Source: Kiritimatiellota bacterium (GTDB taxonomy: Bacteria; Verrucomicrobiota; Lentisphaeria; Victivallales; JAADHT01). From it: a stretch of 36,994 bases of DNA. Every line of letters starts with the position of its first letter. The stretch's first letter is position 1. The translations under genes were made by a program, and so were the position numbers. Below are positions 9,239 to 36,994 of the stretch, in pieces. Below the pieces are notes generated by a model. That model was not told the DNA's origin. It did not search any database and saw only the letters and a program-made list of their open reading frames with translations. Location of the stretch: positions 1-36,994 of the forward strand of contig JAADHT010000218.1 of NCBI GenBank assembly GCA_013151705.1, read 5' to 3'.

Positions 9239-9309
9239 GCGGGAGTGTCCTCGACGAACACTATAATATTTAGCCCCCTTCGGTTGTGGCGATGTTTTGT
9301 CCGGTTCGC

Positions 9310-9330
9310 TCAGACTTTTGCAACTGGCTC
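9310..9330 (-). repeat. Copy B of the dispersed 21-bp motif (reverse orientation)
   Basis: tcagacttttgcaactggctc is the exact reverse complement of copy A. It lies 23 nt upstream of the PSP1 gene start. Confidence 0.7.
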
Positions 9331-9353
9331 ATTATTTAAGGATACGCGCGTAA

Positions 9354-12526: not shown

Positions 12527-13288
12527 CTACCTCCACTTGACGGATATGAACACTGGGGATTCATCGGATTTCGCGCGAAGCCCCAAGGCCGCGCCTCTGA
12601 ACGTCAGAGTTTTAATCGCGGCCATATCCAATTCTTGGTCGCCACACGAACACTCCAGGACTACCGTCGGAAAAAAGTCTCCATCGAAAAAACGGGTTTT
12701 CAACACTGTCTCATTCAAAGGCGGAGGTTTTGTTTTCACGAGCGAGCGGACTGCCGAGGAATCGGGAAACAACTGTGGAAGCCGCGAGCCGTCTTCAAGA
12801 AGCCAGAGAGGGTATTCGGAAGTAGGGATGGCGACACGCGGTTCGGTTGGAGAGATTGGCAGCGCGACGTATCTCCATAATTTACGCAACCGTTCCTGTT
12901 CGGTTTCCGTGGGCGATGGTAGGGGAGACGACGCGCTGAAACGAAAGCTTGGTTTACGCGTCCTCTCCACGAAAGGCGTGTCATTCACGCTGTCCTCGCT
13001 CAATCCCAAGCTGAATCCGCAAACTCGGTTCGGCTTGATAAAGCATTTGGGATCCAAAATGCCAAGCCATTTCAGAAGTCCAAGCTCCGTCTTCGACGTG
13101 GGATTCAATGGAAGCAGCGCCACCATCGGAGGCGGCGCGGAGGTCGCCGCCAAAGGGGGTGGCGCTTTTTTGAAGAGAAGAAAGGTTGCATGAAGAGCCA
13201 ACGTTAAAAGGATGGCCATCACCATTCCAAAGGAAAGGCGGGATTCTTTCGATTCCCTGGAATTGAAACTGTCAATCGTTCTTTTCAT
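12527..13288 (-). CDS. TonB-like energy transducer (N-terminal TM anchor, Pro-rich linker, TonB-C-like end)
   Basis: It sits downstream of exbB-exbD and overlaps exbD by 17 nt. It has a TM segment (FGMVMAILLTLALHATFLLF), a Pro-rich stretch (KKAPPPLAATSAPPPMVALLPLNP) and a C-terminal VVLECSCGDQELDMAAIKTL that resembles the TonB SSG..LD.AA motif. Confidence 0.6.
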   Translation of the reverse strand: MKRTIDSFNSRESKESRLSFGMVMAILLTLALHATFLLFKKAPPPLAATSAPPPMVALLPLNPTSKTELGLLKWLGILDPKCFIKPNRVCGFSLGLSEDSVNDTPFVERTRKPSFRFSASSPLPSPTETEQERLRKLWRYVALPISPTEPRVAIPTSEYPLWLLEDGSRLPQLFPDSSAVRSLVKTKPPPLNETVLKTRFFDGDFFPTVVLECSCGDQELDMAAIKTLTFRGAALGLRAKSDESPVFISVKWR

Positions 13289-13724
13289 CCTGAAAGACCT
13301 TTTCCTTGGCGGGGTTGTCTGAGAGCGTGGCGACGTACACGTTGAGCCCAAGCGATCTCGCCAGCGACATCATCCGCACCACGACTCCGTACTCGGTCGT
13401 TCTATCCGCTCTGACTATCACGGTATTGGCGTTCCAATCGGCTTTGCATTTCTGCAACCGCTCCGTAAGAGTCTCCCAATCCATTTCCATGTCGTTGAAA
13501 TAAAGCCTGTTCGAACGGTCGATCGACACCACCAGTTTATCGACGCTCATTTTACTGCTGGCCTTGGCGGTGGGCAATGTGACGGGGATTCCTGAAACCT
13601 GCACGAAAGAACTGCTCAACATAAAAAATATGAGCAGAAGAAACACAGTGTCGATCATAGGCGTCAAATCAGGACGGCCGCTGATTATCTTCAAATTACC
13701 GCGGATTCTACTTTTCATTTCCAC
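13272..13724 (-). CDS. exbD: Biopolymer transport protein ExbD/TolR
   Basis: Motifs are DLTPMIDTVFLLLIFFM and VTLP, with a C-terminal periplasmic domain (VIVRADRTTEYGVVVRMMSLARSLGL). Confidence 0.85.
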   Translation of the reverse strand: MEMKSRIRGNLKIISGRPDLTPMIDTVFLLLIFFMLSSSFVQVSGIPVTLPTAKASSKMSVDKLVVSIDRSNRLYFNDMEMDWETLTERLQKCKADWNANTVIVRADRTTEYGVVVRMMSLARSLGLNVYVATLSDNPAKEKVFQDEKND

Positions 13725-14364
13725 CCTCTTTGGACGCTTGCGTCAGCTTGCCCCAGTTGCGCTTGAAAAAATATATTATTTCGGATGACGCCTTCTCCAT
13801 GTCGAGCGTGATGGAATCTATTCTGGAGACTAGATAGTTGTAGGCGACGAAACATGGAATCGCCACGCAGAGGCCGGCGGCGGTGGTGAAAAGCGCCTGC
13901 CCTATTCCATTGGCCAAATCGCTGGCGTTCACCATCGCCCCTTTCGCTCTGATCGTGAAGAAAATATCTATCATTCCCAAAACAGTGCCGAGCAAACCAA
14001 GCAACGGCGCTATATACGCGATAGTCGCCAAAACCTTCATTCGGATTTCGAGACGCGGAATCTCACCCAGAGCGGCGTCGTCAACGGCCTGTCTCAAATC
14101 CTCTTCCCCCTCCTCGAATGCGAGAATCGCGGCTCTGAGCACGTGAGCCACCGGCCCGGGAGTGTCGTCGCACAGACTGATCGCCTCCACTATGCTGTTT
14201 CTTTTCAAAACGTTTACCAATCCGCGCACCAGATCTCCGACGCTTATCTGGACTCTGTGCAGATAGAACGTCTTCTCCAAAAAAATGAATGTCGCCACGA
14301 CACTGCACAGCAATATCAGCCACATGACCGGTCCACCCTGTTTCATAAACTCCATAAATAACAT
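13708..14364 (-). CDS. exbB: MotA/TolQ/ExbB proton channel protein
   Basis: The protein has three TM segments. The conserved IAYIAPLLGLLGTVLGMI and GIGQALFTTAAGLCVAIPCFVAYN are present. Confidence 0.85.
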   Translation of the reverse strand: MLFMEFMKQGGPVMWLILLCSVVATFIFLEKTFYLHRVQISVGDLVRGLVNVLKRNSIVEAISLCDDTPGPVAHVLRAAILAFEEGEEDLRQAVDDAALGEIPRLEIRMKVLATIAYIAPLLGLLGTVLGMIDIFFTIRAKGAMVNASDLANGIGQALFTTAAGLCVAIPCFVAYNYLVSRIDSITLDMEKASSEIIYFFKRNWGKLTQASKEGGNEK

Positions 14365-14370
14365 TGTTCA

Positions 14371-16956
14371 TCACTCCTTTAATTTGTATTTCACCTGAAT
14401 TTGTTCAATTTTCTTTTTCAAATCGTCCCTCGGCTCCAAACCGGCTTTCACAAGGGAGCCGTAAACTGTCATTGCGGCTTCCGCGGCCTCGGGAGTCTCC
14501 TTCGCGAGATACAGCCGCGCGGCGGCTATCGCGGATTTAGCGAACCAAACCGAGCTCCGCGCCGTAACTCTCTCAAGCTCCTTGTCCAGATCGTATCTGT
14601 ACATGACTTCGCGGTATTTCAAAAGAGCCTTGCCCTTGTCGCCCAAAAGCTCCTCCGATCGACCTATTTTATACAACACCTGGTCCAAAAAAGCCGACGG
14701 CAGGTTTCCGGAGTCGAAAACTTTTTGATAAAACTTTATCGCGGTCAAATAGTTTGTGCCGTCGGGCGTTTTCCATCCCAAAGCGAAATAACAGTCGCCG
14801 ATTCTCCCCCAGGAGGATTTCTCCAAAAGCGAGCTTGGAAGCGTTTCGACAGCCTTCTTGTAAAAAGGTATGGCTTTCTCATATTCGCTGTTTTTCGAGA
14901 AAATATCTCCGCGCAGAAACAAACCATAGGCCTCGACTCGTTCCTTGGAGTATTTTTCAGATAATTCATCGAGGATCCTCAAGGCCTTTTTGTCGCTGTT
15001 CTTCTTGAAATATATGTCGGCGATCTCGTAGACGGCCCTGGCGGCCAGGGATTTGAACGACGCGGCCGCCGCCAACGATTCAGCCTTCCTGTACGCAGCG
15101 ACGGCTTGATCGTCCTCGCCGCGGCCTTGGTGATGCGCGGCGAGACGAAACAACGCGTGAACGGTGTATTTCGATCCTGGACGCCGCTTGGCGAGAGTTT
15201 CAACATTTTTGATCGCGGCCGCGGGACGGTTCTCCGCGAACAAGGCGTAGGCGAGACGGTATCTGACATTGGGAATCAAAGGATTGTTTGGATATTTTCG
15301 GCAAAACAAGTCGAACTCCGTCACCGCCGCCGCGCAGTTCTCGTTGTCGAGAGAGATCAGGCCGGACTCGAAAAGCGCTCTGGGAGCGTATTTGTCCTCG
15401 GGGCGCTTCCGCGCGAACTCCGCTAATCGTTTTCCCGCTTCCTTCAACTTCCCGGCGTTCTTCAATGCGATGGCATAGAGAAATTCTATTTCAGAAGCCA
15501 AAGAACTTCGCGGCAATTCCCGCAAAAACTGTTTCATTTTCATCGTGAGTGTTTTCGAATCCCTTAAAGACATCAGAATTTTTATCTCGGCGTACAGCGC
15601 CTTTTCCTTCCAATCAGCGAACTTCGCGGCCACCGCGTCGAAAGCCACCGCGGCTTTCCTCGGTTCGCCGCGGGCGAGAAGAGTCTCGCAACGCCAGAAT
15701 GAACCCTCGCCGCGCGTTTTCTCGTCGGCTCCGTTTTTCTCCATGTACGCGAACATCTCGTCGGCATCGTCATAGCGTTTGAGAGAAAGGTAGATCCGGG
15801 CGGCCTCCCTGGCGGATTTCACTTTCACGTCCAATTCGGCCGCTGGGTCTTTTATTATCGTCGTCAATACCTGGAGAGCGTCGTCTGAACTCCCCGTTTT
15901 AGCGTACAAGCCCGCCAACCTCAACCTTATTTCATTGGAAATGAAAGAGTCGGGATAGTTTTTCAGAAACTTCTCCGCCGCCGCGCGAGCGGCAGTGATG
16001 TTTCCCGTGGCGGTCGCGCAGTTGATGCAGCCAACCAACGCCTTTTGTCGGTCGAATTCGGAGGAGGCGAACAAAAGAGCGTCGTTCAAAAGCCAGAGAG
16101 CGGTTTTAACGTCGCCCTTTTTTTTGAAGGACTCCGCCAACGAGGTGGCGAGAAGATACCACAAAGGATCCGGCCCCGAGGCATGTTTGCGGATCGTTTT
16201 GTAATGAACCAGGGCTTTGTCGGACAAACCCTCTTTAGCGAGCATCAACCCGCGCATGACGCGGGGACGCATATCACCTTTGATTTTGGATTGGCTGATG
16301 AGCAGCCGCGCCTCTTTGTAATCACCCATCATGACGACGGCCAAAACGCGTTTAGCCTCGGCATCCGCCTCCCAATGGGTGTTTTTGGCGGTGAACGCCA
16401 GCAACGCGAAGGTTTTCTCGGCATCAACCCATTGGCTCCATCTGGCGTATGTCGTCCCCAACGCATCGAGAGTTCTGTAGTATAACTCGCCGCGACGCGG
16501 AAGCGCCTTTAGAAGTTTTTTAAAGGATTCGCTCGCCTTCCGAAGATCCCCTGAAGCGAGAAGAACGCAAGCGTCCCAATAACTCAGACGTCTTCGCAAA
16601 TCGGGCTTCTTGGCGATAGTGGCCGCGAATTTGGTGGTCAGAAACGTGAATTCCTCCCGCGCTTTCAGCGGATTGCCGGAACGAACATAAGTGGCTATGA
16701 GACACTCACTGGCGTCTATCGACGCCTCTGTGTTTCCCGCGGACTCCGCTTTGTATTTCAAATAAAATTTGACCGCCAAATCGTAAATCCCGTCCTTGAA
16801 CGCCTTGTCGCCCAGATAGCGACTCTCCGACGGATTGCCGGCGGTTCCGCCTGGTTTGACTGAAGGGGTGTCGCCGAAAGCGGTGAAAACGACGAGCGGC
16901 GACGACAGCGTCACCGCCACTGTGGATATCAACGCCAAATTGCGAATGAAATTCAT
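14371..16956 (-). CDS. Large secreted tetratricopeptide-repeat (TPR) protein
   Basis: There is a signal peptide (MNFIRNLALISTVAVTLSSPLVVFTAFG). TPR-like A/Y/L-rich 34-aa periodicity runs throughout. It is the first gene of the exbB-exbD-tonB-like operon. Confidence 0.85.
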   Translation of the reverse strand: MNFIRNLALISTVAVTLSSPLVVFTAFGDTPSVKPGGTAGNPSESRYLGDKAFKDGIYDLAVKFYLKYKAESAGNTEASIDASECLIATYVRSGNPLKAREEFTFLTTKFAATIAKKPDLRRRLSYWDACVLLASGDLRKASESFKKLLKALPRRGELYYRTLDALGTTYARWSQWVDAEKTFALLAFTAKNTHWEADAEAKRVLAVVMMGDYKEARLLISQSKIKGDMRPRVMRGLMLAKEGLSDKALVHYKTIRKHASGPDPLWYLLATSLAESFKKKGDVKTALWLLNDALLFASSEFDRQKALVGCINCATATGNITAARAAAEKFLKNYPDSFISNEIRLRLAGLYAKTGSSDDALQVLTTIIKDPAAELDVKVKSAREAARIYLSLKRYDDADEMFAYMEKNGADEKTRGEGSFWRCETLLARGEPRKAAVAFDAVAAKFADWKEKALYAEIKILMSLRDSKTLTMKMKQFLRELPRSSLASEIEFLYAIALKNAGKLKEAGKRLAEFARKRPEDKYAPRALFESGLISLDNENCAAAVTEFDLFCRKYPNNPLIPNVRYRLAYALFAENRPAAAIKNVETLAKRRPGSKYTVHALFRLAAHHQGRGEDDQAVAAYRKAESLAAAASFKSLAARAVYEIADIYFKKNSDKKALRILDELSEKYSKERVEAYGLFLRGDIFSKNSEYEKAIPFYKKAVETLPSSLLEKSSWGRIGDCYFALGWKTPDGTNYLTAIKFYQKVFDSGNLPSAFLDQVLYKIGRSEELLGDKGKALLKYREVMYRYDLDKELERVTARSSVWFAKSAIAAARLYLAKETPEAAEAAMTVYGSLVKAGLEPRDDLKKKIEQIQVKYKLKE

Positions 16957-25658: not shown

Positions 25659-25736
25659 CGGGATGTAGCGCAGTCTGGTTAGCGCGTTTGACTGGGGGTC
25701 AAAAGGTCGGAGGTTCGAATCCTCTCATCCCGACCA
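25659..25736 (+). tRNA. tRNA-Pro (anticodon GGG), CCA end encoded
   Basis: A hand-folded cloverleaf fits. The parts are:
- acceptor cgggatg/catcccg
- D stem gcgc/gcgc
- anticodon stem tttga/tcaaa with loop ct-GGG-gg
- T arm ggagg-ttcgaat-cctct
- discriminator A plus CCA. Confidence 0.93.
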
Positions 25737-26401: not shown

Positions 26402-27538
26402 ATGGAATTCGAGTTCATTTCCCCGGAGAAAATTGTTTTCGGCCCAGGAAAAGTAAATGAGTCTGGCGCATTGTGTGAGGGTTTGGGTCGTCGGGCCTTG
26501 ATTGTGTGCGACGCGTATACGCTCGGCAGCGGATTGGCGGAGCGTGTGGCGGGAATTTTAAAAGCCGCCGGCATGGAGTCGACCATCTACAGCGGAGTCA
26601 TTCCCAACCCCACCGCGGAATGTGTTGACGAAGCTGGCGCGGTGGCGATGGCGAATGATTGTGATTTCGTCGTCGGCGTGGGCGGCGGGTCTTCCATGGA
26701 CACGGCCAAGGGAGCGGCGGTTTCGGCGACTCACGGCGGGAAGATATGGCCTTACGCCATCGGCGACAAAGAGATCACCGACAGTGTTTTGCCCATCGTG
26801 GCGATCACCACAACCTCCGGGACAGGCAGCCAGTGCACTTGTTTCGCGGTTATTTCCAATCACGAGACGAAGCAGAAACCAGGAATGGGGTCGCCGCTCA
26901 TACTTCCCAAGCTCGCGATTGTCGATCCGGAGCTGATGCTGTCGGTTCCCAGACAATTGACCGCCAACACCGGATTTGACGTTTTCACTCACGCCGTGGA
27001 GGCTTACACCTCCACAGCGGCATCCGCAATGAGCGACATGCATGCCGAGAAATCACTAATATTGCTTGGCGGCTTCCTCGAACGTTGCTACAAGGATGGT
27101 TCCGACTTGGAAGCCAGGGAGGCGATCGCGCTGGCCGACACCTGCGCCGGGATGGCTATTTGCAACGCCGTCGTGACTTTGCCTCATGTAATAGCGCATG
27201 TCATCAGCGGGCATTTCGAGGAAATTCCGCATGGCGACGCTCTTCACTCCATATATCGCGCGAGCCTGAAATTCAATTCGCGGGCCTTGCCTGGAAAACA
27301 CCGGTTTATCGCCAATGCCATTGATCCGGGAAACAACGACGTGGTTTCGGCATTTGAAAATTACTTCAGCCGTTTTGAATTTGTGAACATGCTTAAAAAC
27401 AAATTGGCGGAAGACCCAGAGGCGATTGATCGTCTCGCTGAAGACACCTTCACTTATATGTTGGGAATAACGGAACTAAATCCCGTGAAAGCGACACTGG
27501 AAGACGCCAAACGAATTCTGGTTGAGTCAAGCAAATAG
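26402..27538 (+). CDS. Iron-containing (group III) alcohol dehydrogenase
   Basis: Motifs are GVGGGSSMDTAKGAAV and a metal-binding His cluster (LPHVIAHVISGHFEEIPHGDA). A taggagga RBS precedes the start. Confidence 0.9.
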   Translation: MEFEFISPEKIVFGPGKVNESGALCEGLGRRALIVCDAYTLGSGLAERVAGILKAAGMESTIYSGVIPNPTAECVDEAGAVAMANDCDFVVGVGGGSSMDTAKGAAVSATHGGKIWPYAIGDKEITDSVLPIVAITTTSGTGSQCTCFAVISNHETKQKPGMGSPLILPKLAIVDPELMLSVPRQLTANTGFDVFTHAVEAYTSTAASAMSDMHAEKSLILLGGFLERCYKDGSDLEAREAIALADTCAGMAICNAVVTLPHVIAHVISGHFEEIPHGDALHSIYRASLKFNSRALPGKHRFIANAIDPGNNDVVSAFENYFSRFEFVNMLKNKLAEDPEAIDRLAEDTFTYMLGITELNPVKATLEDAKRILVESSK

Positions 27539-27563
27539 TTATTAAAATTTGAGGAGCGACAAC

Positions 27564-28418
27564 ATGCCCCTGGTAAACCCTATGCCTATGTTGGAGAAAG
27601 CGCGCGCGGAAGGTTTCTGCGTCGGCGCGTTCAATGTGGTTGATTACTTGTCAATCGAGGCGGTGGTGGAAGCCGCCGAGCGTAAAAGAGCGCCGGTTAT
27701 AATACAGACTTCATCCGCCACGATCAAACGTTTCGGTATTGAAAACATCGTGACAATGACCCGTATGGCCGCGGCGGAGTCCACCGTGCCGATATGCCTG
27801 CACCTTGATCATGGAACAGATGTCTCGGTAATTAAAGAAGCTATTGAAAAGGGGTATAGCTCGGTTATGATTGACGCCTCGAAACTGGCTTTTGAGGAAA
27901 ATATAGCAGTCAGCAAAGAAGTTGTCGAAGCGGCTCACAAAGCCGGTCTTGCCGTTGAAGGTGAAATCGGGCTGGTCGCGGGAGTGGAGGATGACATCGT
28001 GGTCAATGCCGAGGACGCGATCTATACAACACCGGAGGAAGCGATTGAATTTCAAGCCCGTTCCGGTGTTGATTTTCTGGCGGCGGCCATCGGTACGGCT
28101 CATGGCTTCTACAAAGTAGCGCCAAAACTGAATATCGACACATTGCGCGAAATACGCGTCAAAACTGATTTCCCGCTGGTCGTGCATGGCGGCACGGGGT
28201 TGCCGACGAATATCGTCATGGAATTGGTTGAAGCGGGAGGCGCCAAGTTTAACGTGTCAACGCAAATCAAGCAAACCTATATTGACTCAATGTACGGTTA
28301 TATACAGGAAAAGCGCGACGAATACAACATTTTAAAAGTTCTCGACGCTGCGAAACAGGGATTGGCGGATATGATCGCTGAATATATGACAATCCTTGGC
28401 GGCGAGGGTAAGGCGTGA
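27564..28418 (+). CDS. Class II (metal-dependent, TIM-barrel) fructose/tagatose-bisphosphate aldolase family protein
   Basis: Motifs are GAFNV, PVIIQTS, LHLDHG, VMIDAS, VEGEIG, AIGTAHG and VVHGGTG. A gaggag RBS lies at 27551-27556. Confidence 0.88.
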   Translation: MPLVNPMPMLEKARAEGFCVGAFNVVDYLSIEAVVEAAERKRAPVIIQTSSATIKRFGIENIVTMTRMAAAESTVPICLHLDHGTDVSVIKEAIEKGYSSVMIDASKLAFEENIAVSKEVVEAAHKAGLAVEGEIGLVAGVEDDIVVNAEDAIYTTPEEAIEFQARSGVDFLAAAIGTAHGFYKVAPKLNIDTLREIRVKTDFPLVVHGGTGLPTNIVMELVEAGGAKFNVSTQIKQTYIDSMYGYIQEKRDEYNILKVLDAAKQGLADMIAEYMTILGGEGKA

Positions 28419-28426
28419 GGTGAATC

Positions 28427-29365
28427 ATGAGTGTTTCGTACTGTAAATATCCCTGTGACATGCATTGCCATACTGTTCGTTCAGATGGAAATGACACTCC
28501 ACGGGAATTATTGAGCAACGCCGCCTTGGTGGGTCTGAAGGTGGTGGCGATTACGGATCATGACACCCCGCCGCCTGTCAACTGCGAACTTGAGGACGGC
28601 AGTGAAGTCCCATGCGATGAATATGCTTCGGAGTTGAAAATAGTCTATGTGCCAGGATATGAGTTTTCCTGCGACAGATGGGTTGATGATGTTCACATCT
28701 GCGGTTACGCGATGAACTGGGATTATCCCGCTTTGGCCGATGAAATCCAGATGGCCCGAAACAGCAAAAGCGAGGCCTATAAGAAATTGTGCGGGATGTT
28801 GACATCGAAAGGCATGGAGATTGACTGGGAGCTGGACATTCTGCGAGTTGACACTCCCAATGAGCGTGCTCCGGATGAGGTGGAACGTAAACATATTTTT
28901 GAGGCCATCGCCGTCAAAGGACATACTCCCACCTGGAGCGAGGCTAAAATAATGGTGCGTGACGATCCTGAATTGAATATCCGGCGACGTAAAATCGGCG
29001 CGGCGGCGGCGATTGATCTCATCCATGCATGTGGTGGCGTCGCCGTGCTGGCGCATCCCTATCTGATTGATGAAAAAGTGTTTGTCGACGGTAAAGAGAA
29101 AATATGCCGAACGGAATACATTGAACGACTGATAACCGCGGGTCTTGACGGCATTGAGGCATCGTATACTTATGATAAAACATCATATAAAGGAACTCTG
29201 TCTCCTGAAGAAATAGAACAGGTGATACGCGGGAAATATACTGATCGTCTGTTTATCAGCGGCGGTTCCGACTATCACGCTGGACACAAAAAAGGAAACG
29301 CGAAGGTGCGTCATCTCGGCGAACGCGGTATTTCAATGGATGAGTTCGCGAAGTTCGACTTGTGA
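28427..29365 (+). CDS. PHP-domain metal-dependent phosphoesterase
   Basis: Motifs are CDMHCHTVRSDG, VVAITDHDT, VLAHP and GGSDYHA. Confidence 0.85.
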   Translation: MSVSYCKYPCDMHCHTVRSDGNDTPRELLSNAALVGLKVVAITDHDTPPPVNCELEDGSEVPCDEYASELKIVYVPGYEFSCDRWVDDVHICGYAMNWDYPALADEIQMARNSKSEAYKKLCGMLTSKGMEIDWELDILRVDTPNERAPDEVERKHIFEAIAVKGHTPTWSEAKIMVRDDPELNIRRRKIGAAAAIDLIHACGGVAVLAHPYLIDEKVFVDGKEKICRTEYIERLITAGLDGIEASYTYDKTSYKGTLSPEEIEQVIRGKYTDRLFISGGSDYHAGHKKGNAKVRHLGERGISMDEFAKFDL

Positions 29366-29391
29366 GAATGGAAATAAAAAGGAGAAGTGAA

Positions 29392-30102
29392 ATGATTGAC
29401 ATGAAAACTCTGACTAAAAAAGAGCTTGCGGGAATGATGGATTATTCCATTCTGCCTAAAAATACTCAGGAGAAGGACATTCGTGAAGGTTGCGCCGTCG
29501 CGCGTGAATATCGTTTTGCCGCTTTTTACAGTAGCAGTCCATACTGGACTCCGTTAATCAAAGAGGAACTACAGGGGTGTGATGATATTGAGATCGGCAC
29601 CGGCATCGCGTTCCCATTCGGTTCGACACCCGCTTCCGTCAAAGCGCTTGAGGTGGAAGAGTCCGTCAAGCGCGGATGCACCACTGTTGACATGGTCATG
29701 AATATAGGAGCTCTCAAAGACAAACGATATAAAGTAGTAGAGGAAGAGCTTGAACTGTTCGTCAAAGCGGCCGGAAACGCGGTGACGAAATGCATACTCG
29801 AGGTCTGTTATCTGACTAATGAGGAAATTACAGCCGGCAGTAAACTGATTGAAGCGGCGGGAATTCAGTACGCCAAGACTTCCACCGGTCAATTTGACGG
29901 TCCGGATATGGATCAGTTTCTGATAATGCGTGATACTTTAGCTGGAAGCGCCGTGAAACTTAAAGCGGCCGGCGTCAAATTCCCGCGTCCGCAAAATGCT
30001 TTGGTATTCATTAAGGCGGGAGCCGTGAGAATCGGCACGCGCGCGGCGATAGAGATTGTCGAAGCTTATGACACCATGAAATCAATCGGCCTCATCGGCT
30101 GA
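29392..30102 (+). CDS. DeoC/LacD-family class I aldolase (deoxyribose-phosphate aldolase-like)
   Basis: Motifs are MMDYSILP, VDMVMNIG, TKCILEVCYL and the Schiff-base lysine motif YAKTSTGQ. An aaaaaggaga RBS precedes the ATG at 29392. Confidence 0.85.
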   Translation: MIDMKTLTKKELAGMMDYSILPKNTQEKDIREGCAVAREYRFAAFYSSSPYWTPLIKEELQGCDDIEIGTGIAFPFGSTPASVKALEVEESVKRGCTTVDMVMNIGALKDKRYKVVEEELELFVKAAGNAVTKCILEVCYLTNEEITAGSKLIEAAGIQYAKTSTGQFDGPDMDQFLIMRDTLAGSAVKLKAAGVKFPRPQNALVFIKAGAVRIGTRAAIEIVEAYDTMKSIGLIG

Positions 30103-30118: not shown

Positions 30119-31681
30119 ATGCCTATTCGACGGCAATATCTGGCTGGAGTCGATGTCGGAACAACTGGAACCAGATGTTCCATCTACGACCTGAAGGGAC
30201 AACGTGTCGGCAGTGAATATCTGGAGTATCCCTCAATCTATCCGCATCCCGGCTGGGTGGAACAGGATATTCAGTTCATGGTCAAGCGTTGCATGGAGGC
30301 TTGCCGCGCGGCAATCTCCTCCGCCGGGGTCGCTCCTGAAAATATTGCGTCAATCGGCTTCTCCACCCAACGTTCGGTGACTTGTCCGGTGGATGCGGAC
30401 GGTGAACCGGTGCGTGACATGATATCGTGGCAGGATGCCAGAACCGGAGACGAAGTGGCTGACATGCGTCGGCTGATTGACGATGAGGAGTACTATGCTT
30501 TAAGCGGTTTGCCGATGGGAACAACCTGGATTCTCTCCAAAATATTATGGATGCGGAAAAACGAGCCGGAATTTTTTGAAAAAACCGCGAAAGTCGTCCA
30601 GAACCAGGACATCGTACTGCGGGCATTTGGCGCCGAAGGCTTTTTCACTGATATGAGTTGCATGCCGTTTTATGGTGTTTGGGATGTTAAAAATGGCTGC
30701 TGGAATGATAAGTTGATGTCATTATTCGATTTGACGCCGGAGTTTTTCGGCACACCGACTCCGCCGGGAACTCAGGTCGGGGTTATTGGCGCTGATATCG
30801 CCGCCAAAACCGGTTTTGCGGAAGGAACTCCGATTTGTGTTGGCGCGGGTGATCAGAATTGCAGCGTTGTCGGCATGGGGGCGGTCAAGCCGGGGATGGC
30901 CACGGTCACTCTCGGCACGGCCGGTCTGGCGATTCTCACAGTTGACAGTCCGGTTCCTGGATTCGGGGGTATGATGATCACTCATCACGCGGTGCCGAAT
31001 CAGTGGGAGGTCGAAGGATTGTCGAACGCGGCCGCCAGTTCATTGCGCTGGTTTCGTGACGTGATTGGAACCCGGGAGAAGGAGATTGCTGAAAAAAGCG
31101 GCGCGGACGCGTATGCGCTACTCGACCAGTTAGCGGCAAAAAGCAAACCCGGCAGTCATGGAATTCTATATATGCCTTATTTGGCGACCGCCGGAACACC
31201 GCGCTGGAACGCGAACGCTCGGTCAGCATTCATCGGCATGTCATTGGCGCATAATCGGGCCGATATGACGCGGGCGGTAATGGAGGGAGTGGTTCTTGAA
31301 ATTCGTGATATGATCGAAGGTTGGCGCGAACAGGGAATGGAAGCCGAAGTGTTGAGACTTGGCGGCGGAGCGGCGAAATCGAAGTTATGGAACCAGATTC
31401 AAGCTGATGTCTACGGCAGACCGGTTCAGATTCCGCGTGAAAGTGATTCCACTGTTCTCGGCGCCGCTATTCTGGGCGGTGTGGGCGCCGGTATTTTTTC
31501 TTCCATTGATGAGGGCGTGAAGAACATGGTCCATGTGGCCGGAGAGCTTGAACCAGATATGGCTAATCATCATATTTACGAGGAGATGTACCGCGCGTAT
31601 CGCGCGGCGTATAATGGTCTCGCGGAAAGCGGGACTTATGATCTGCTTGCCGGACTTCAGGAAAAATTCGCTCAAGGATAA
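30119..31681 (+). CDS. FGGY-family carbohydrate kinase (xylulokinase/fuculokinase/rhamnulokinase-like)
   Basis: The N-terminal motif is YLAGVDVGTTGTRCSIYD. Also present are VGAGDQNCSVVGMG and the C-terminal LRLGGGAAKSKLWNQIQADVYGRPV. Confidence 0.9.
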   Translation: MPIRRQYLAGVDVGTTGTRCSIYDLKGQRVGSEYLEYPSIYPHPGWVEQDIQFMVKRCMEACRAAISSAGVAPENIASIGFSTQRSVTCPVDADGEPVRDMISWQDARTGDEVADMRRLIDDEEYYALSGLPMGTTWILSKILWMRKNEPEFFEKTAKVVQNQDIVLRAFGAEGFFTDMSCMPFYGVWDVKNGCWNDKLMSLFDLTPEFFGTPTPPGTQVGVIGADIAAKTGFAEGTPICVGAGDQNCSVVGMGAVKPGMATVTLGTAGLAILTVDSPVPGFGGMMITHHAVPNQWEVEGLSNAAASSLRWFRDVIGTREKEIAEKSGADAYALLDQLAAKSKPGSHGILYMPYLATAGTPRWNANARSAFIGMSLAHNRADMTRAVMEGVVLEIRDMIEGWREQGMEAEVLRLGGGAAKSKLWNQIQADVYGRPVQIPRESDSTVLGAAILGGVGAGIFSSIDEGVKNMVHVAGELEPDMANHHIYEEMYRAYRAAYNGLAESGTYDLLAGLQEKFAQG

Positions 31682-31801: not shown

Positions 31802-31939
31802 GACGATTAAAAAGTTTTCTTCCCGGGCCAATTTCCAATTTCGGATATCCAACAATCAGCCGCGGCGGAAACCGAAGATAGTGAAGAGAAAATGCAAGTG
31901 GCTCATTTGAATTTGGAGTTCACACACACTGTGTACGAC

Positions 31940-32752
31940 ATGAGTATGAACAAGAGCAAAAAAAGCAATTATTCGGCGCCGGCGGTGGATGCGATGTTGG
32001 ACATCGTCGAACGGATGGCCCAAGAGAGTCGGGTGTTTAATTTAACCGAGTTGGCGGTCGGTTTGGATCTCTCGAACAATCTGGTTTTCCGCGTGTTGAA
32101 TCGTTTGTTGGAACGTGGTTACGTCGAGCGCTTGGAGTCAGGCGGCTACCGTTTGTCCGACGGTTTTTTCACGTTGGGCATGAAGTTGTATTCACGTTTC
32201 GAATTGCGCGTGGCGGCTAGAAAACACCTTGAGAAATTGAGCGCGGAGGTGGGCGAGACGGCTCAGTTGCAGGTTCTAAGCGGTAGGGAAATGCTGGTTT
32301 TGGAGGCTGTGGCGCCTTCGTCGGACTTTTACCTGCACGTCACGCCGGGAATTCGGGTGCTCGCTCACTGCAACGCCTACGGCAAGGTGGTGATGGCGTT
32401 CCTGCCTCCCGAGAGAGTCGATGAGATTCTGGAGGGAAGGCTTGAGCGCGTTACCAAAAGAACGATAACCTGCAAGAAAACTTTGATGAATGAGCTGAAA
32501 CGGATAAAAAAGACTGGCGTGGCGTACGATAACGAGGAGTACAGCAGAGGGGTGTTCTGCGTGGGATCGCCCGTTTTCGATAGCGATGGAAAGATTGTCG
32601 GTGGAGTTGGTCTGACGGGACTCACATCAAGATTCAATCCCGAAAACGCGCCGGAATTGGAGAAAAAGGTGCTTGAATGCGCGGAGCGCGTTTCCAGCGG
32701 ACTAGGATACGGCGGCGATTTTTTCACTACACTCGCCACTTCCGCGAAATGA
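31940..32752 (+). CDS. IclR-family transcriptional regulator
   Basis: The N-terminal wHTH is LDIVERMAQESRVFNLTELAVGLDLSNNLVFRVLNRLLERGYVER. The effector domain carries AQLQVLSGREMLVLEAV, TKRTIT, GVAYDNEEYSRGVFCVGSPVFD and GGVGLTG. Confidence 0.9.
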   Translation: MSMNKSKKSNYSAPAVDAMLDIVERMAQESRVFNLTELAVGLDLSNNLVFRVLNRLLERGYVERLESGGYRLSDGFFTLGMKLYSRFELRVAARKHLEKLSAEVGETAQLQVLSGREMLVLEAVAPSSDFYLHVTPGIRVLAHCNAYGKVVMAFLPPERVDEILEGRLERVTKRTITCKKTLMNELKRIKKTGVAYDNEEYSRGVFCVGSPVFDSDGKIVGGVGLTGLTSRFNPENAPELEKKVLECAERVSSGLGYGGDFFTTLATSAK

Positions 32753-32830: not shown

Positions 32831-32859
32831 TTTAGATCAGGCATTCCGTGGAATGCGGT

Positions 32860-34971
32860 ATGGAGAAAAAAATGAACGCTGACGAAAGAGCAAAATTAGT
32901 ACGGACCCGAGTGCTTGACGACCAGTCGAAATTATCGTGGTTCAAAGGACGCGATGTAGTTACGGACGCTGAGATATTACGCGGACTGCGGAACTACAAG
33001 TCGCAACAATTGCGAGCGGGCGCCCTCACTCGCGGAAGATTATCGGGACTGCGCTTTCAGATCGACGATTTCGAATTGCTCGCGGGAAGGATTTTGGAGA
33101 ATGATCGTTCCAACGAGGAGAAAGAGGAAGCCGTGGCATTTCTTGAGACACTTCCCCCGGCCGGCGGTCAATCGGGACATTGCGCTCTCTACTGGGAGGA
33201 GCTTTTCGAGATTGGTTTGGGTGGGTTGATCGACAAGGTATCCGCATTGGGAAAAAATTCCGAGGGTGAGCGAGTGGACGCCTATCACTCGTTCATCGAC
33301 GCGTTGGAGGGCGTGCGGACGATGATAGCCAACGCATGCGAACCTGTCGAGGAGGCATTGCCCTCGGCCACTCCGGAACGAACAGTCGAGTTGGAGAAAA
33401 TTCTTGACTCGTGCCGTCGGATCGAGAAAAAACCTCCGCGGAATTTCCGCGATGCGATTCAGTTGGTGTGGTTCATGATAATAGGCACGATGATAGGAGA
33501 TGGCGTGGGTTTCATTTGCCCCGGGATGCTTGACAGGCATTTCGCCCGCTTCATCGAAGATGGCGAGGCGTTTGAAAACGAGGTTTTGGAAATTCTCGAG
33601 GCCTACTATTTTCTGATCAATGATTTCACTCCCGCGGGAGGTGCTTACGCCATTATGGTGGGAGGTGTCGATGAAAATGGAAGAAACCTCACCAATAAGT
33701 TGTCGTTTCTCTGTTTGGAGGCTTTGCGTCGAACCAATCTCGTCTATCCAACCGTTGGCGTCTGCTGGCACGAGGAAACTCCCGACGCTCTAACGGATCT
33801 GGCTATCGATTTGATTTCAAAAGGGTATTCCACTCCGGCTTTCTTCGGTGACTCGACGATAAGAAAAGGGTTGGTGAAATACGGAACGCCTGAAAAAGAG
33901 GCTTGCGACTACCAGAACTCCACTTGCGTCGAGATTACGCCATACGGCTCAAGCAATGTCTGGGTGGCATCCCCCTATTTCAGCCTCTGCGGCATATTGA
34001 TGGATGTCATGGGGACGATGGTCGATGGTGGTTACATTATCAAAACGTATGACGACTTCGTGTCCGCGTACTTCGCGAAACTGGCGGATGAGATCGCGAA
34101 AGCCGCGGAACTCCAAAACCAGTGGCGCGAGAAACGCAGGTTGAACAACAGGAACCCGCTCCAGAGCGTGATGACCCGCGATTGCGTGGAGCGAGGACGC
34201 GATATCGACGACGGAGGCGCGCGGTACAACTGGGTGGAATGCTCATTCGTCGGGCTGGCGAATTTGGTGGATTCCCTGAAAGTGGTGAAAGAGGAGGTAT
34301 TTGAATCACGCAATTTCTCACTGAATGAATTGAAAAGCCTGTTGGACGCGAATTTCGCGGAGAATGAAAACATTAGAATGAGGTTTCTCAACGCGCATTC
34401 GAAATATGGGCTGGACGATTCCGAGGTCGACGACGAGGTGAGTAGGTTTGTGGCGTTCGTAACCGCCGAGTGCGCGAAACACAAGATGCTGCCGGACGAT
34501 TCGCATTTCATTCCCGGAACGTTCTGCTGGGTGAAGCATCAAGTTCTCGGAGCTCAATGCGGGGCCACGCCAGACGGCCGCCAAGCCACACGCCCGTTCG
34601 CCGATGGAGCCGGTCCAGCGCAAGGCCGCGAGAAACTCGGCCCCACGGCGGCGATAAACTCCGTGACATCCTGGGATCATTCCCCGCTGATCGGCGGTTC
34701 CGCCTTCAATATGAAATTCGACAGCTCGGTCTTCAACTCGCCGGAATCGAATGAAAAGCTCAAACAGCTCATTCTCGTGTTTCTGCGTCAAGGCGGATTC
34801 GAAACTCAAATCAATGTATTGAAACACGGAATTCTTAAAGAAGCGAAGGCGAACCCGGAGGAATACCGCGATCTGGTCGTCAGAATCGGAGGATATACGG
34901 ATTATTTCACTAAACTATCTCCTGACATGCAGGACGAGGTGATGCTGAGAACGGAATACACCGAGTTGTAG
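32860..34971 (+). CDS. Glycyl radical enzyme, PFL-like fold, compact (about 700 aa), with a Cys-x-Glu thiyl loop
   Basis: The glycyl loop is DLVVRIGGYTDYFTKLSPDMQDEVMLRTEY and the thiyl loop is DYQNSTCVEITPYG. Also present are FRDAIQLVWF, ATPDGR and GPTAAINS. The alternative start at 32872 has a better GGAG RBS. Confidence 0.9.
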   Translation: MEKKMNADERAKLVRTRVLDDQSKLSWFKGRDVVTDAEILRGLRNYKSQQLRAGALTRGRLSGLRFQIDDFELLAGRILENDRSNEEKEEAVAFLETLPPAGGQSGHCALYWEELFEIGLGGLIDKVSALGKNSEGERVDAYHSFIDALEGVRTMIANACEPVEEALPSATPERTVELEKILDSCRRIEKKPPRNFRDAIQLVWFMIIGTMIGDGVGFICPGMLDRHFARFIEDGEAFENEVLEILEAYYFLINDFTPAGGAYAIMVGGVDENGRNLTNKLSFLCLEALRRTNLVYPTVGVCWHEETPDALTDLAIDLISKGYSTPAFFGDSTIRKGLVKYGTPEKEACDYQNSTCVEITPYGSSNVWVASPYFSLCGILMDVMGTMVDGGYIIKTYDDFVSAYFAKLADEIAKAAELQNQWREKRRLNNRNPLQSVMTRDCVERGRDIDDGGARYNWVECSFVGLANLVDSLKVVKEEVFESRNFSLNELKSLLDANFAENENIRMRFLNAHSKYGLDDSEVDDEVSRFVAFVTAECAKHKMLPDDSHFIPGTFCWVKHQVLGAQCGATPDGRQATRPFADGAGPAQGREKLGPTAAINSVTSWDHSPLIGGSAFNMKFDSSVFNSPESNEKLKQLILVFLRQGGFETQINVLKHGILKEAKANPEEYRDLVVRIGGYTDYFTKLSPDMQDEVMLRTEYTEL

Positions 34972-34994
34972 GAAACGAAACAGTGAAAAAGGAA

Positions 34995-35197
34995 AAGATT
35001 TAACCACTAACTCTCACTAACTTAACACCCGCCTTCGCATCTACGGCGTGGCAGGCTAACAATGTATTGCGCTCCGTACCGGAGCGCAGCGGTGTGTCAT
35101 AAAAATTCAACGTGACGTTTCCGCGTTCGGTATTCCGAACGCGGAAATATTCTCTTCGTTAGTGTGAGGTTAGTGTTCGTTAGTGGTTTAAAATCTT
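34995..35197. repeat. 203-bp structured inverted-repeat element with phased CACTAAC/GTTAGTG heptamers and two internal hairpins
   Basis: The left arm is aagatttaaccactaactctcactaac (34995-35021). The right arm is gttagtgtgaggttagtgttcgttagtggtttaaaatctt (35158-35197). Heptamers sit at 35005 and 35015 on the + strand and at 35158, 35169 and 35179 in inverse orientation. Confidence 0.65.
35118..35147 (+). terminator. Perfect 13-bp stem / 4-nt loop hairpin, a candidate intrinsic terminator or attenuator between the two GRE genes
   Basis: tttccgcgttcgg-tatt-ccgaacgcggaaa is followed by tattctcttcgtt. A second 9-bp hairpin, tgcgctccg-tac-cggagcgca, lies at 35068-35088. Confidence 0.45.
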
Positions 35198-35222
35198 GAT
35201 TGATTTGATATTGAGGAAAAAT

Positions 35223-36994
35223 ATGAGAACACCAACTTATGAGATATTGATGGAGCTCGGCGAATATTTTCTCGCGGGATTCCATGAAAACAGGTTCGAC
35301 TCCTATATGAGGCGATTCTGCAAAGCGTTGCTTCTATATGCGAAACACGCCGATGCGGTTGATTACGATGAAACCGCGCTGTTCCCCTCCGGCGGAGCCC
35401 AAATCTGGCGTTTGATTCCCGACTCCAGTGCCGGATTCTCGTATTCATACACGTTTTTCTATGATAGTCCGAAATTTTTGAGAAAAATAGAGACGCTTCA
35501 GGATGAGAGGAAAAAGATATTGATGCGCGGAGTGGATGGCGAGATGACGACAATCGCCTCCATTCACATCGCGCCTCAATACCGTTGCGGCGGAGCCGGA
35601 TACACACATTCCATAATCAACTACGCCCGAGTTCTGAATGACGGACTGGCTGGCTACAGGAGAAGACTCGAGAAAAAACTCGACGATCCGGATGCAAACG
35701 AAGAAAAGGCGGATTTCCACGCATCGCTCCTGCTGGCTCTCGACGCGGTTTCAATTTTGCGCGACAAACATCTAGCGAAACTCAAAAGCGTCAAAAAAAC
35801 TAGTCGAAAACTGAAAAGGTTGATCGTCGCGATGGAAAAGGTTCCCGAGAATCCGGTCGAATCGTTTTACGAAGCGATGGTCGCCACGAATTTCATGTGG
35901 TTTGTGGACGACGGCGACTCAATCGGCCGCTTGGATCAATTTCTGTATCCGTACTACGAGAAAGATTTGGACGCCGGCGTTATTTCCAGAGACGAGGCTG
36001 GGGAATTGTTGAAGGAGTTTTGGCGCTCATTTGATTGCCGGAGCGGATGGCACATGATTTTGGGGGGAAGCCGCGCGGACGGATCAGCCGCGTACCAAGA
36101 TCTTACCCTCCTTTGTCTCGAGACCATCAAGAAATGCCGTCGCCCCAATACGGGGTTGAGAGTAAGGAAGGACATGCCGGAGGAAATTTGGCGGGCGGCG
36201 CTCGACTCGATGGCATCGGGTTGCGGGCATCCTTCGCTATACAACGAGGAGATGTACTCGGAGGGAATAAGGAATATTCTTAAAGTCGACGAAAAAGACG
36301 CGAGCGACTTCGCCTACGGAGGATGCACTGAGATAATGTTTCAGGGCATGTCGAATGTGGGCTCCATCGATTCTGGGCTGAATCTGCTCGAGGTGCTTGA
36401 GAACGAGTTGCCGAGACTGACTGAATTCGACACCTACGACGAATTCCGCGACCATTTCATGAAAAAGGTCGCGAAAGTCGCGGAACTCACAGTCTCACAG
36501 TCGAATTTGAATCAAAAACAGATGGCGTTGTATCGTCCCCAGCCCATAAGGTCTCTTTTCGTTGAGGATTGCATCGAACGCGGCGTGGACTACAACGCCG
36601 GTGGAGCGAGATACAACGGCAGCGTGATAAACGTGATTGGTTTCGCCAACACCATAAATTCGCTATTCACTATCAAAAAGATTTTCGAGGGAGGAATTCC
36701 AATTTCACGTCAAAGTCTTCTCGATGCGGTCAAAGCCGATTTCACCGGTTTCGAAAAAGAGCTTCAGATAATAAAAAACCTTGACAAGCATGGATGCGAC
36801 AACCCGGAAATCAATGATATCGCGTCGAATCTCTCGAATTTCGTGTTCGACGAGATTCTTTCGAGAAGATGCAGCCGCGGCGACGGATTCTGCGTGCCGG
36901 GAACGATAATGTTCGTAACCTACGCCGCCGAGGGAGCTGATATCGGAGCCACTCCCGACGGTCGCCTGGCCTTCTCGCCGATCGCCGACTCGTA
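35223..36994 (+). CDS. Second glycyl radical enzyme (PFL-like), 3'-partial, running off the window edge
   Basis: This open frame is absent from the ORF track because no stop is reached. The ATG at 35223 follows a gagga RBS. Motifs are SIGRLDQFLYPYYEKDL, the thiyl loop DFAYGGCTEIMFQG, GGARYNGS and GATPDGR. The glycyl loop is expected about 300 nt beyond the window. Confidence 0.9.
   Translation, partial: MRTPTYEILMELGEYFLAGFHENRFDSYMRRFCKALLLYAKHADAVDYDETALFPSGGAQIWRLIPDSSAGFSYSYTFFYDSPKFLRKIETLQDERKKILMRGVDGEMTTIASIHIAPQYRCGGAGYTHSIINYARVLNDGLAGYRRRLEKKLDDPDANEEKADFHASLLLALDAVSILRDKHLAKLKSVKKTSRKLKRLIVAMEKVPENPVESFYEAMVATNFMWFVDDGDSIGRLDQFLYPYYEKDLDAGVISRDEAGELLKEFWRSFDCRSGWHMILGGSRADGSAAYQDLTLLCLETIKKCRRPNTGLRVRKDMPEEIWRAALDSMASGCGHPSLYNEEMYSEGIRNILKVDEKDASDFAYGGCTEIMFQGMSNVGSIDSGLNLLEVLENELPRLTEFDTYDEFRDHFMKKVAKVAELTVSQSNLNQKQMALYRPQPIRSLFVEDCIERGVDYNAGGARYNGSVINVIGFANTINSLFTIKKIFEGGIPISRQSLLDAVKADFTGFEKELQIIKNLDKHGCDNPEINDIASNLSNFVFDEILSRRCSRGDGFCVPGTIMFVTYAAEGADIGATPDGRLAFSPIADS

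Follow-up and report, generated by a model that had tools for sequence, protein, structure and literature searches.

Two compact PFL2-type glycyl radical enzymes at a Kiritimatiellota contig end probably begin a multi-enzyme array with a single activase

Among anaerobic radical enzymes, the glycyl radical enzyme (GRE) eliminases form the class that is growing fastest. The described systems closest to the two genes considered here, GRE-1 and GRE-2 of a Kiritimatiellota metagenome-assembled genome (MAG), are the B12-independent glycerol dehydratase DhaB1 of Clostridium butyricum (1R8W), the 1,2-propanediol dehydratase of Roseburia inulinivorans (5I2A/5I2G), a microcompartment-associated enzyme of ~840 aa, and the E. 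coli enzymes YbiW and PflD. DhaB1 is encoded in a dhaB1-dhaB2-dhaT operon together with its activase and an Fe-dependent alcohol dehydrogenase (Fe-ADH). The E. coli genes lie in the clusters ybiV-ybiW-ybiY-fsaA and gldA-fsaB..pflD-pflC, each of which combines a phosphatase or dehydrogenase with an aldolase, a GRE and an activase. According to a 2026 review, a CxE motif with a substrate-bound Glu defines the GRE eliminases and isomerases, His164 of glycerol dehydratase is the acid that protonates the leaving hydroxyl, and YbiW and PflD (‘anhydroglycolysis’) are paralogous sugar-phosphate isomerases specialized on two epimeric anhydro-alditol phosphates. The same review states that each GRE has its specific activase, activase specificity being poorly studied and tied to the sequence of the Gly loop. 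The window analyzed here is one entire contig of 36,994 bp (locus tags GXP32_08065 and GXP32_08070) that ends within GRE-2, and among the enzymes listed in the review there is none of this size, loop type or taxonomic origin.

We consider it reasonably probable that GRE-1 and GRE-2 belong to a tandem battery of independent, competent, compact PFL2-type GREs that carry out radical 1,2-elimination on carbohydrate-derived substrates and share an activase. GRE-1 (class C of the compact GREs described below; 32872..34971, + strand) is an uninterrupted open reading frame (ORF) with possible starts at 32848 (GTG), 32860 (ATG) and 32872 (ATG), running to 34971. The NCBI model, NOY75733.1, is a protein of 699 aa that begins at 32872, with GGAG 8 nt upstream. 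Counted from 32860 the protein has 703 aa, with FELLAGR at residue 71, His107, GMLDRHF at 222, STCVE at 354-358 (Cys356 and Glu358) and RIGGY at 675-679 (Gly678). Its Pfam matches are the ten-stranded barrel domain PFL-like PF02901 (E=2.4e-87, spanning profile positions 152-647 only) and Gly_radical PF01228 (E=5.7e-22). GRE-2 (class A; 35223..36994, + strand) is open without interruption for 590 codons, from 35223 to the last base of the contig, and carries His129, a GGCTE loop with Cys368 and Glu370, and SIGRLDQFLYPYY; its PFL-like match has E=4.6e-82. About 120 residues, the glycyl loop among them, fall beyond the contig end. Re-reading of the sequence agreed within a few residues with what an initial annotation had reported of both proteins: ~700 aa, Cys356 in STCVE, RIGGY and GMLDRHF in GRE-1, and Cys368 in GCTE together with SIGRLDQFLYPYY in GRE-2. 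That annotation had also expected GRE-2 to end near 715 aa; this length and the presence of a glycyl loop are supported by full-length orthologs (64-78% identity) of 708-731 aa, all having Gly_radical and RIGGYSEYF. It was mistaken in denying GRE-2 the ELxxG-type segment, a diverged counterpart of which, DETALFPSG, stands at the homologous place.

Judged by sequence profiles and predicted folds, both proteins are genuine PFL-like GREs. The AlphaFold2 (AF2) model of GRE-1 (pLDDT 91.7, pTM 0.92) is a confident and complete GRE fold, as is that of P0122, a GRE-2 ortholog of 78% identity (pLDDT 90.0, pTM 0.91). These models match solved GREs at TMq 0.81-0.91, the best match being glycerol dehydratase 1r8w for GRE-1 (TMq 0.91) and 1,2-propanediol dehydratase 5i2g for P0122 (TMq 0.87). 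By sequence, the best match of GRE-1 among solved GREs is glycerol dehydratase (258 bits, 25% identity) followed by PflD (254 bits), and no solved structure exceeds ~26% identity to GRE-1 or to a GRE-2-type protein. The top NCBIfam model for both was the TIGR01774 PFL2-3 subfamily, which gave 345 (344.9) bits with GRE-1 and 217 bits with GRE-2 against a cut-off of 678.2 and was matched from model position ~153 onward only. The NCBIfam GRE equivalogs (HypD, CutC, HpsG, HpfG, HPAD, IAD and PFL) scored 72-290 against cut-offs of 994-1150. As first noticed by eye, the two proteins are only distantly similar to one another, with 25% identity over 493 aa (148 bits). In profile-profile comparison they align from the His loop to the C-terminus only, the first 105-130 residues being unaligned.

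The compactness reported in the initial annotation is real. GRE-1 has 699-703 aa, depending on the start, whereas solved PFL-like GREs have 759-897 aa (construct lengths; one CutC entry has 1150) and native E. coli PflD has 765 aa. Relative to E. coli PflD and YbiW, all of the compact classes lack ~30-36 aa between the ELIxG segment and the His loop, ~23 aa further upstream of that stretch, and a loop of 12-16 aa that bears Tyr339 in glycerol dehydratase; apart from these three losses the modeled fold is complete. The N-terminal region and the Tyr339 loop are trimmed in all of them, which defines a minimal PFL2-type scaffold. The compact classes are 22-33% identical to one another, GRE-1 is nearer to glycerol dehydratase (258 bits) than to GRE-2 (148 bits), and a neighbor-joining tree with a star-like backbone has YbiW, PflD and glycerol dehydratase intermingled with the compact classes. 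By these measures the compact classes would therefore be as old as the splits between the characterized GRE families. The shared deletions suggest common ancestry of the compact classes, a point that the bit scores (258 vs 148) leave unsettled, and a star-like neighbor-joining tree cannot tell whether these classes form one clade.

The classes were first sorted from an alignment of 19 GREs of the first loci, and residues were mapped in glycerol dehydratase numbering, a mapping validated by C433, E435, G763 and H164 landing on the expected residues. His164, Cys433, Arg760, Gly763 and Arg782 are invariant in all six compact classes, and Glu435 is kept in classes A-E. The catalytic Cys is invariant in 130 compact GREs; Cys356 of GRE-1 and Cys368 of GRE-2 align with Cys433, and His107 and His129 are the respective equivalents of the general acid His164. 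Both proteins have the CxE motif of the GRE eliminases and isomerases, C356-V-E358 in GRE-1 and C368-T-E370 in GRE-2. Class C, to which GRE-1 belongs, has the signatures GQ[ST]GHC, NSTCVEITP and RIGGYTDYF; class A, that of GRE-2, has G[YF]THS, GGCTE and RIGGY[ST]EYF; and class D (653-685 aa) has NIGH, GCYEA and R[VI]SGYSA. The Cys loops of the other classes read GGCTETM (B), GGCMELSP (E) and NSCMG (F). Across 40 class C sequences from many phyla N353, S354, C356, V357, E358 and I359 are invariant and T355 is at least 90% conserved, and across 40 class A sequences, likewise from many phyla, G366, G367, C368, T369, E370 and M372 are invariant. Because of this conservation the loops that had seemed atypical, STCVE and GGCTE, are best described as class-defining signatures and not as signs of decay.

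Class F departs from this pattern. In its members (L004, 8106-10250; L012, 11360-13498; L046, 13273-15351; also L079 and L082) Gly, Cys and His are kept, C-M-G replaces CxE and a Ser precedes the Cys. The missing CxE glutamate suggests that a chemistry other than that of the eliminases is present within the same arrays.

A pattern scan of one genome per GTDB species (species representatives) found relatives of class C at 337 loci. These were in Lentisphaerota (Victivallales/Lentisphaeria), Kiritimatiellota, Planctomycetota, Verrucomicrobiota, Chloroflexota (Anaerolineae), Hydrogenedentota, Latescibacterota, Armatimonadota, some Bacillota and others. Neighborhoods were counted in 84 non-redundant loci anchored on class C. 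The commonest arrangement was class C alone (53 of the 84, 24 of these 53 with an activase within reach); 31 loci had at least two GREs, 19 of them two and 12 of them three to seven, and exactly one activase was present in 11 of the 12 loci with three or more. Class combinations varied widely (AC, BC, CF, CD, ACD, ABCD, CDF and others), and the batteries of 3-7 GREs are variable and drawn from at least six classes. The largest array, in a Victivallaceae MAG (L012, 327-18888), packs seven GREs of classes B, B, D, C, F, D and E with one Fe-ADH, one IclR and one activase into 19 kb. Two apparent GRE fusions, of 1,283 aa (L069) and 1,556 aa (L055), were rejected as long open frames in high-GC DNA in which the GRE match occupies the last ~700 residues only.

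In the loci syntenic with the window, the classes of GRE-1 and GRE-2 head arrays of 3-7 diverged compact GREs (653-775 aa) with one activase last. The closest models for the window are L003 and L004, since their first two array GREs are of the GRE-1 type and then of the GRE-2 type. L003 has a class E enzyme, an ADH and an IclR gene before classes C, A and D and the activase, that is, ADH-IclR-GRE(706)-spacer-GRE(709)-GRE(674)-activase. L004 has classes C, A, D and F before the activase, GRE(703)-spacer-GRE(731)-GRE(654)-GRE(714)-activase. The order is A-C-activase in L006, A-unknown-C-D-activase in L001 and A-B-unknown-C-D-activase in L002, the last two being from Victivallales. GRE-1 and GRE-2 would thus be the first two genes of a longer battery of compact GREs that continues past the contig end with, very probably, at least a single activase and perhaps one or two more GREs. 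The initial annotation had proposed a two-enzyme pathway; the pair is real, yet it is the visible start of a larger battery of 3-7 GREs, and the proposal was in that respect incomplete. The window array is a mosaic, in which class C is nearest to L001/L006 (69-73% identity) and class A is nearest to L003/L004 (64-66%, vs 42-46% to L001/L006), and such a pattern fits cassette-like exchange of paralogs. In L089 and L091 an activase accompanies a solitary compact GRE of class A. Since both classes are found solo with an activase and array composition is variable, the paralogs are most likely independent, catalytically competent enzymes and not a catalytic subunit with its partner. In L091, where the order is IclR-GRE-activase, a canonical GRE of 786 aa (13231-15591) follows directly; one locus can thus hold GREs of both lengths, perhaps with one activase between them.

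In agreement with the initial annotation, no activase is encoded in view. No CxxxCxxC motif was found in any open frame of at least 80 aa on either strand of the whole window, and no Pfam Radical_SAM domain among the 28 main ORFs scanned. As the contig ends inside GRE-2 and the arrays of its relatives end in an activase, the missing activase is readily explained as an effect of the contig end. In the syntenic loci the array is closed by one GRE activase of 300-320 aa; that of L001 and L002 has 305 aa with ferredoxin-type clusters. On another contig (9,750 bp) of the same MAG lies the activase NOY75670.1, a protein of 302 aa having CX3CX2C at 29-36 and two CX2CX2CX3C ferredoxin motifs. With the array activases of L001 and L002 it shares 69-70% identity, as much as GRE-1 shares with its orthologs in those loci (69%), and its accession is 63 before that of GRE-1. 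These data support the earlier expectation that GRE-1 and GRE-2 would depend on an activase encoded downstream or elsewhere. One activase serving several GREs, as the gene content of the arrays would imply, runs against the statement that each GRE has its own.

The conserved residues allow a mechanism to be proposed by analogy to the described eliminases. A radical generated by the activase at the C-terminal glycine of RIGGY would move to the loop cysteine. The thiyl radical would then take a hydrogen from a hydroxyl-bearing carbon, the CxE glutamate would deprotonate that hydroxyl and the conserved histidine would protonate the neighboring leaving group, the loss of which would give a carbonyl product by 1,2-elimination or by ring-opening isomerization. 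Like DhaB1, GRE-1 has equivalents of Cys433, Glu435, His164 and Gly763. Unlike DhaB1, it is 84-88 residues shorter, has Thr and not Gly before the Cys, belongs to a multi-GRE array and lacks the Tyr339 loop, Ser282, Asp447, Tyr640 and Ser642. According to the 2004 structure paper, these residues reportedly contact glycerol in glycerol dehydratase. GRE-1 itself has F218 for Ser282, A370 for Asp447 and F555 for Tyr640, and GRE-2 has G, I and I at these positions; the Tyr339 loop is deleted in both. At positions 282, 447, 640 and 642 class A as a whole has C/Y, I, I and F and class D has A, V, F and F. From these replacements, neither GRE-1 nor GRE-2 should be filed as a glycerol dehydratase. The compact GREs very probably carry out eliminase-type chemistry, not on glycerol and not all on one substrate. 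Differing pocket residues would suit each paralog to a different carbohydrate-derived vicinal diol, polyol or sugar phosphate, or to a different stereo- or regio-isomer, with all paralogs under one activase and one IclR regulator.

The 1,2-propanediol dehydratase resembles class A in its CxE and His machinery and in a fucose-related context; unlike it, class A has a GGCTE loop and different pocket residues, and identity is 24-25%. YbiW and PflD, which are also CxE enzymes, appear by analogy to be the nearest functional precedent for the battery, since their specialization on two epimers sets a precedent for one paralog per isomer. They differ in being 765-810 aa long, in lying at two separate loci with an activase each and in sharing only 23-26% identity with GRE-1. 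The type of chemistry is familiar. What had not been described is the compact scaffold, the TCVE and GCTE loops and, most of all, the arraying of several GREs with one activase.

The sugar-related genes beside the GREs add a possible setting. In the final 10.6 kb of the window all genes, from the Fe-ADH through GRE-2, are co-oriented on the + strand. The run begins with the Fe-ADH (26402..27538; Pfam Fe-ADH and ADH_Fe_C), which falls under every NCBIfam equivalog cut-off (lactaldehyde reductase, 203 vs 523). Next come a class II ketose-bisphosphate aldolase (27549..28418; Pfam F_bP_aldolase, 6e-90; TIGR00167 cbbA subfamily, 264.7 against a cut-off of 215.6) and a PHP-family phosphoesterase, a putative sugar or other phosphatase (28427..29365; Pfam PHP, 4.5e-06; NCBIfam matches weak). 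A deoxyribose-phosphate aldolase (DERA; 29362..30102; TIGR00126 deoC, 152.5 bits against a cut-off of 117.3) and a xylulokinase-like FGGY sugar or polyol kinase (30119..31681; Pfam FGGY_N and FGGY_C; TIGR01312 XylB, 309, below the cut-off of 380) complete the block. It is followed by an IclR-family regulator (31892..32752; Pfam IclR_C, 5e-41, and HTH_IclR). This aldolase-PHP-DERA-FGGY block lies inside the unit of ADH, IclR, GREs and activase in the window, in L001, in L002 and probably in L006, the contig of which is cut within the PHP gene so that the upstream end of the block lies outside it. In L001 and L002 the ADH-aldolase-PHP-DERA-FGGY-IclR block precedes 3 or 4 GREs (653-726 aa) and then the activase. 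Both of these loci also encode, at 8916-9959 between GRE paralogs, a 347-aa protein that is 94% identical between the two and has no Pfam or NCBIfam match. In this lineage the GRE products may feed the adjacent kinase, DERA, class II aldolase, phosphatase and Fe-ADH. The Fe-ADH would reduce the carbonyl products, or DERA and the class II aldolase would cleave them once the FGGY kinase had phosphorylated them. One possibility is that an alditol phosphate made by the kinase would be dehydrated at its terminal diol to a 2-deoxyaldose phosphate, which DERA would cleave to acetaldehyde and a triose phosphate, the ADH then reducing the acetaldehyde.

Across the related loci the recurring unit is Fe-ADH-IclR-GREs-activase. 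Partners counted in the 84 loci were an activase in 51, IclR in 19 (directly upstream of the GREs), Fe-ADH in 14 and uroporphyrinogen decarboxylase (URO-D)-like proteins in 14. IclR is the most constant non-catalytic neighbor of the arrays and is also found upstream in L089 and L091. Occasional neighbors include a sulfatase, a fucosidase, GH16, GH141, GH71/99, an MGH1-like hydrolase, (GDSL) esterases, an aldo-keto reductase, an aldehyde dehydrogenase and GFO/IDH/MocA oxidoreductases. On a Spirochaetota contig (L089) the order is IclR-sulfatase-CBM9 protein-GRE-activase-esterase-GH71/99-URO-D-like-alpha-L-fucosidase. By gene content the setting is one of carbohydrate breakdown with aldehyde- and ketone-handling enzymes. 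Apart from activase, IclR, Fe-ADH and URO-D-like proteins, neighborhood clustering brought out no one conserved partner from which the substrate could be read. The URO-D-like proteins (uroporphyrinogen decarboxylase or MtaA-type methyltransferase fold) often occur in several copies (L025, 8765-9814; L034, L036, L039, L044, L045, L074, L076 and L086; L089, 17592-18710; and others), and sugar O-demethylation is one possibility for them.

Several observations weigh against the battery of independent eliminases proposed above. Although GREs of ~700 aa with TCVE or GCTE loops are common (337 loci), as the initial annotation had allowed they might be, they are, as judged from NCBIfam, the PDB and the searchable literature, not the already characterized subfamily that it also envisaged. 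No characterized member of the compact classes was found in these sources, and the substrates given here are proposals. At the glycerol-contact sites class C has F/L for Ser282, A for Asp447, F for Tyr640 and W for Ser642 along with deletion of the Tyr339 loop, and with the glycerol-binding residues absent the closest structural relative is a poor guide to the substrate. Thr before the catalytic Cys is without precedent among the solved CxE enzymes aligned, and confidence in the GRE-1 model falls to pLDDT 74-76 around the Cys loop. The glycyl loop of GRE-2 and everything after it fall outside the window. Sharing of the activase is read from gene content within 10 kb, and further activases may be encoded elsewhere in those genomes. 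Finally, the DERA/FGGY/aldolase/PHP block accompanies GREs in just four closely related loci (the window and its three nearest relatives), and since the IclR gene and a 210-bp gap stand between this block and GRE-1, the link between them may be mere adjacency.

Among the other explanations, the one that fares best, although we think it rather unlikely, is that co-arrayed paralogs act in turn on one carbon skeleton, as in successive radical dehydrations of a polyol or sugar. Such a pathway would account for the recurrence of C, A or B, and D before one activase (L001-L004, L010, L012, L014 and L031) and for the co-directional, tightly spaced array GREs. It sits badly with the 53 of 84 loci in which class C is alone, with or without a nearby activase, and with the highly variable class combinations, and the mosaic in the window fits exchangeable cassettes better than a fixed pathway.

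Less likely still, the paralogs would be isozymes that duplicate a known activity, such as that of 1,2-propanediol or glycerol dehydratase, and are kept for dosage, regulation or replacement after oxygen damage. The best structural matches are indeed these two dehydratases, and the triad of Fe-ADH, GRE and activase resembles the C. butyricum dhaB1-dhaB2-dhaT operon. Moreover, fucosidases lie nearby, and the pocket has hydrophobic residues at positions 640 and 642, which would suit a diol ending in a methyl group. Isozymes of one activity should not, however, be as distant from one another (22-33% identity) as from the characterized families, nor should their pocket residues vary by class or their NCBIfam scores fall far under every equivalog cut-off. 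In addition, no microcompartment shell genes and no CoA-acylating aldehyde dehydrogenase were seen in the annotated window or in the annotated loci.

A hetero-oligomer of a catalytic paralog with a second one that serves in structure, regulation or radical storage, in line with the catalytic and diverged partners offered in the initial annotation, we regard as very improbable. The N-terminal regions of classes C and A are unalignable and N-terminal helices form the dimer interface in known GREs, some of which have partner subunits, though these are small and unrelated. Against a division of labor, the Cys loops are invariant class signatures, the catalytic set of Gly, Cys, Glu and His is kept in both classes, both model as complete GRE folds, and both occur solo with an activase with no fixed pairing. 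On sequence evidence it is scarcely credible that either gene is a decaying duplicate. The atypical Cys loop of GRE-1, with Thr in place of Gly ahead of the Cys, and the truncated GRE-2, in which the glycyl loop is not seen, might suggest a pseudogene, but both ORFs are uninterrupted, the odd residues hold across 40 sequences of each class drawn from many phyla, and the truncation coincides exactly with the contig end while the orthologs are full length with Gly_radical.

GRE-1 and GRE-2 are separated by a structured spacer of 251 nt (34972..35222, + strand), studied by RNA folding, repeat analysis and a terminator scan. Its predicted RNA fold has -95 kcal/mol (z = -6.4), and it contains a palindromic element (34995-35195) in which 2-3 CACTAA[CT] heptads per arm, 10-11 nt apart, are mirrored as [AG]TTAGTG. 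Arms of CACTAAC heptads (35002-35028 and 35158-35191) enclose two hairpins. One (35117-35148) is a perfect 14-bp hairpin with 8 G-C pairs and a weak T-tail; no other site of the region looks more like a terminator, and it could attenuate transcription that runs on from GRE-1 to GRE-2. The second hairpin, also perfect, is at ~35067-35092. Promoter and terminator scans were at chance level overall, and the spacer had no Rfam family match. An equivalent element lies at the equivalent position in L003 (7625-7865; RNA fold z = -9.2), and the heptad element is also present in L093, L105, L117, L140, L161, L164, L169 and others. The motif AACCACTAAYNNNCACTAAY was found in at least 120 metagenome contigs from soils, peat, and fresh and marine waters, usually with 3+3 heptads and a loop of 20-40 nt. 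A role of the CACTAAY-heptad element as a GRE-specific regulator was rejected, as none of the 80 contigs fetched of these at least 120 had a GRE, an activase or an operon gene. The heptads are conserved and the 3-nt spacers between them are neither conserved nor complementary, and the element therefore looks more like protein-binding sites on one DNA face than like a pure RNA hairpin; it may be akin to a repetitive extragenic palindrome or a miniature inverted-repeat transposable element. Just before the GRE-1 starts and overlapping the GTG at 32848 lies a perfect 7+7 palindrome, GCATTCC-GT-GGAATGC (32841-32856), a possible IclR operator. No second exact copy was found in the window, and looser matches were no commoner than chance. 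The remainder of the window holds housekeeping and envelope genes and a tRNA (25659-25733). At the far contig end (923-1594) is a Vsr-type DNA mismatch endonuclease domain protein, unconnected with the GREs.

A bolder extension of the proposed battery, which we hold only tentatively and think more likely wrong than right by a wide measure, is a ‘radical deoxygenation battery’. In this, the leaving group, be it water, a ring ether or even a sulfate ester, would differ from one GRE to the next, and so would the sugar, alditol or sugar-phosphate isomer that loses it, these isomers being derived from sulfated, fucose-rich polysaccharides. One promiscuous activase would serve up to seven GREs with differing Gly loops (RIGGYTD, RIGGYSE and RVSGYSA). 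If true, this would go against the working rule of one specific activase per GRE and add new GRE reaction types, and it would possibly provide an O2-independent route from alditol phosphates to 2-deoxyaldose phosphates that DERA cleaves. The organisms that carry these enzymes are known mainly for breaking down complex and sulfated glycans where oxygen is absent, in sediments and guts. The arrays of 3-7 GREs, 22-33% identical and behind a single activase, are a natural test case for activase specificity. Whole GRE clades are without any tested member according to the 2026 review, and this locus marks several of them. Should the connection with DERA, the kinase and the aldolase prove real, new routes for the fermentation of polyols or deoxy-sugars would be indicated.

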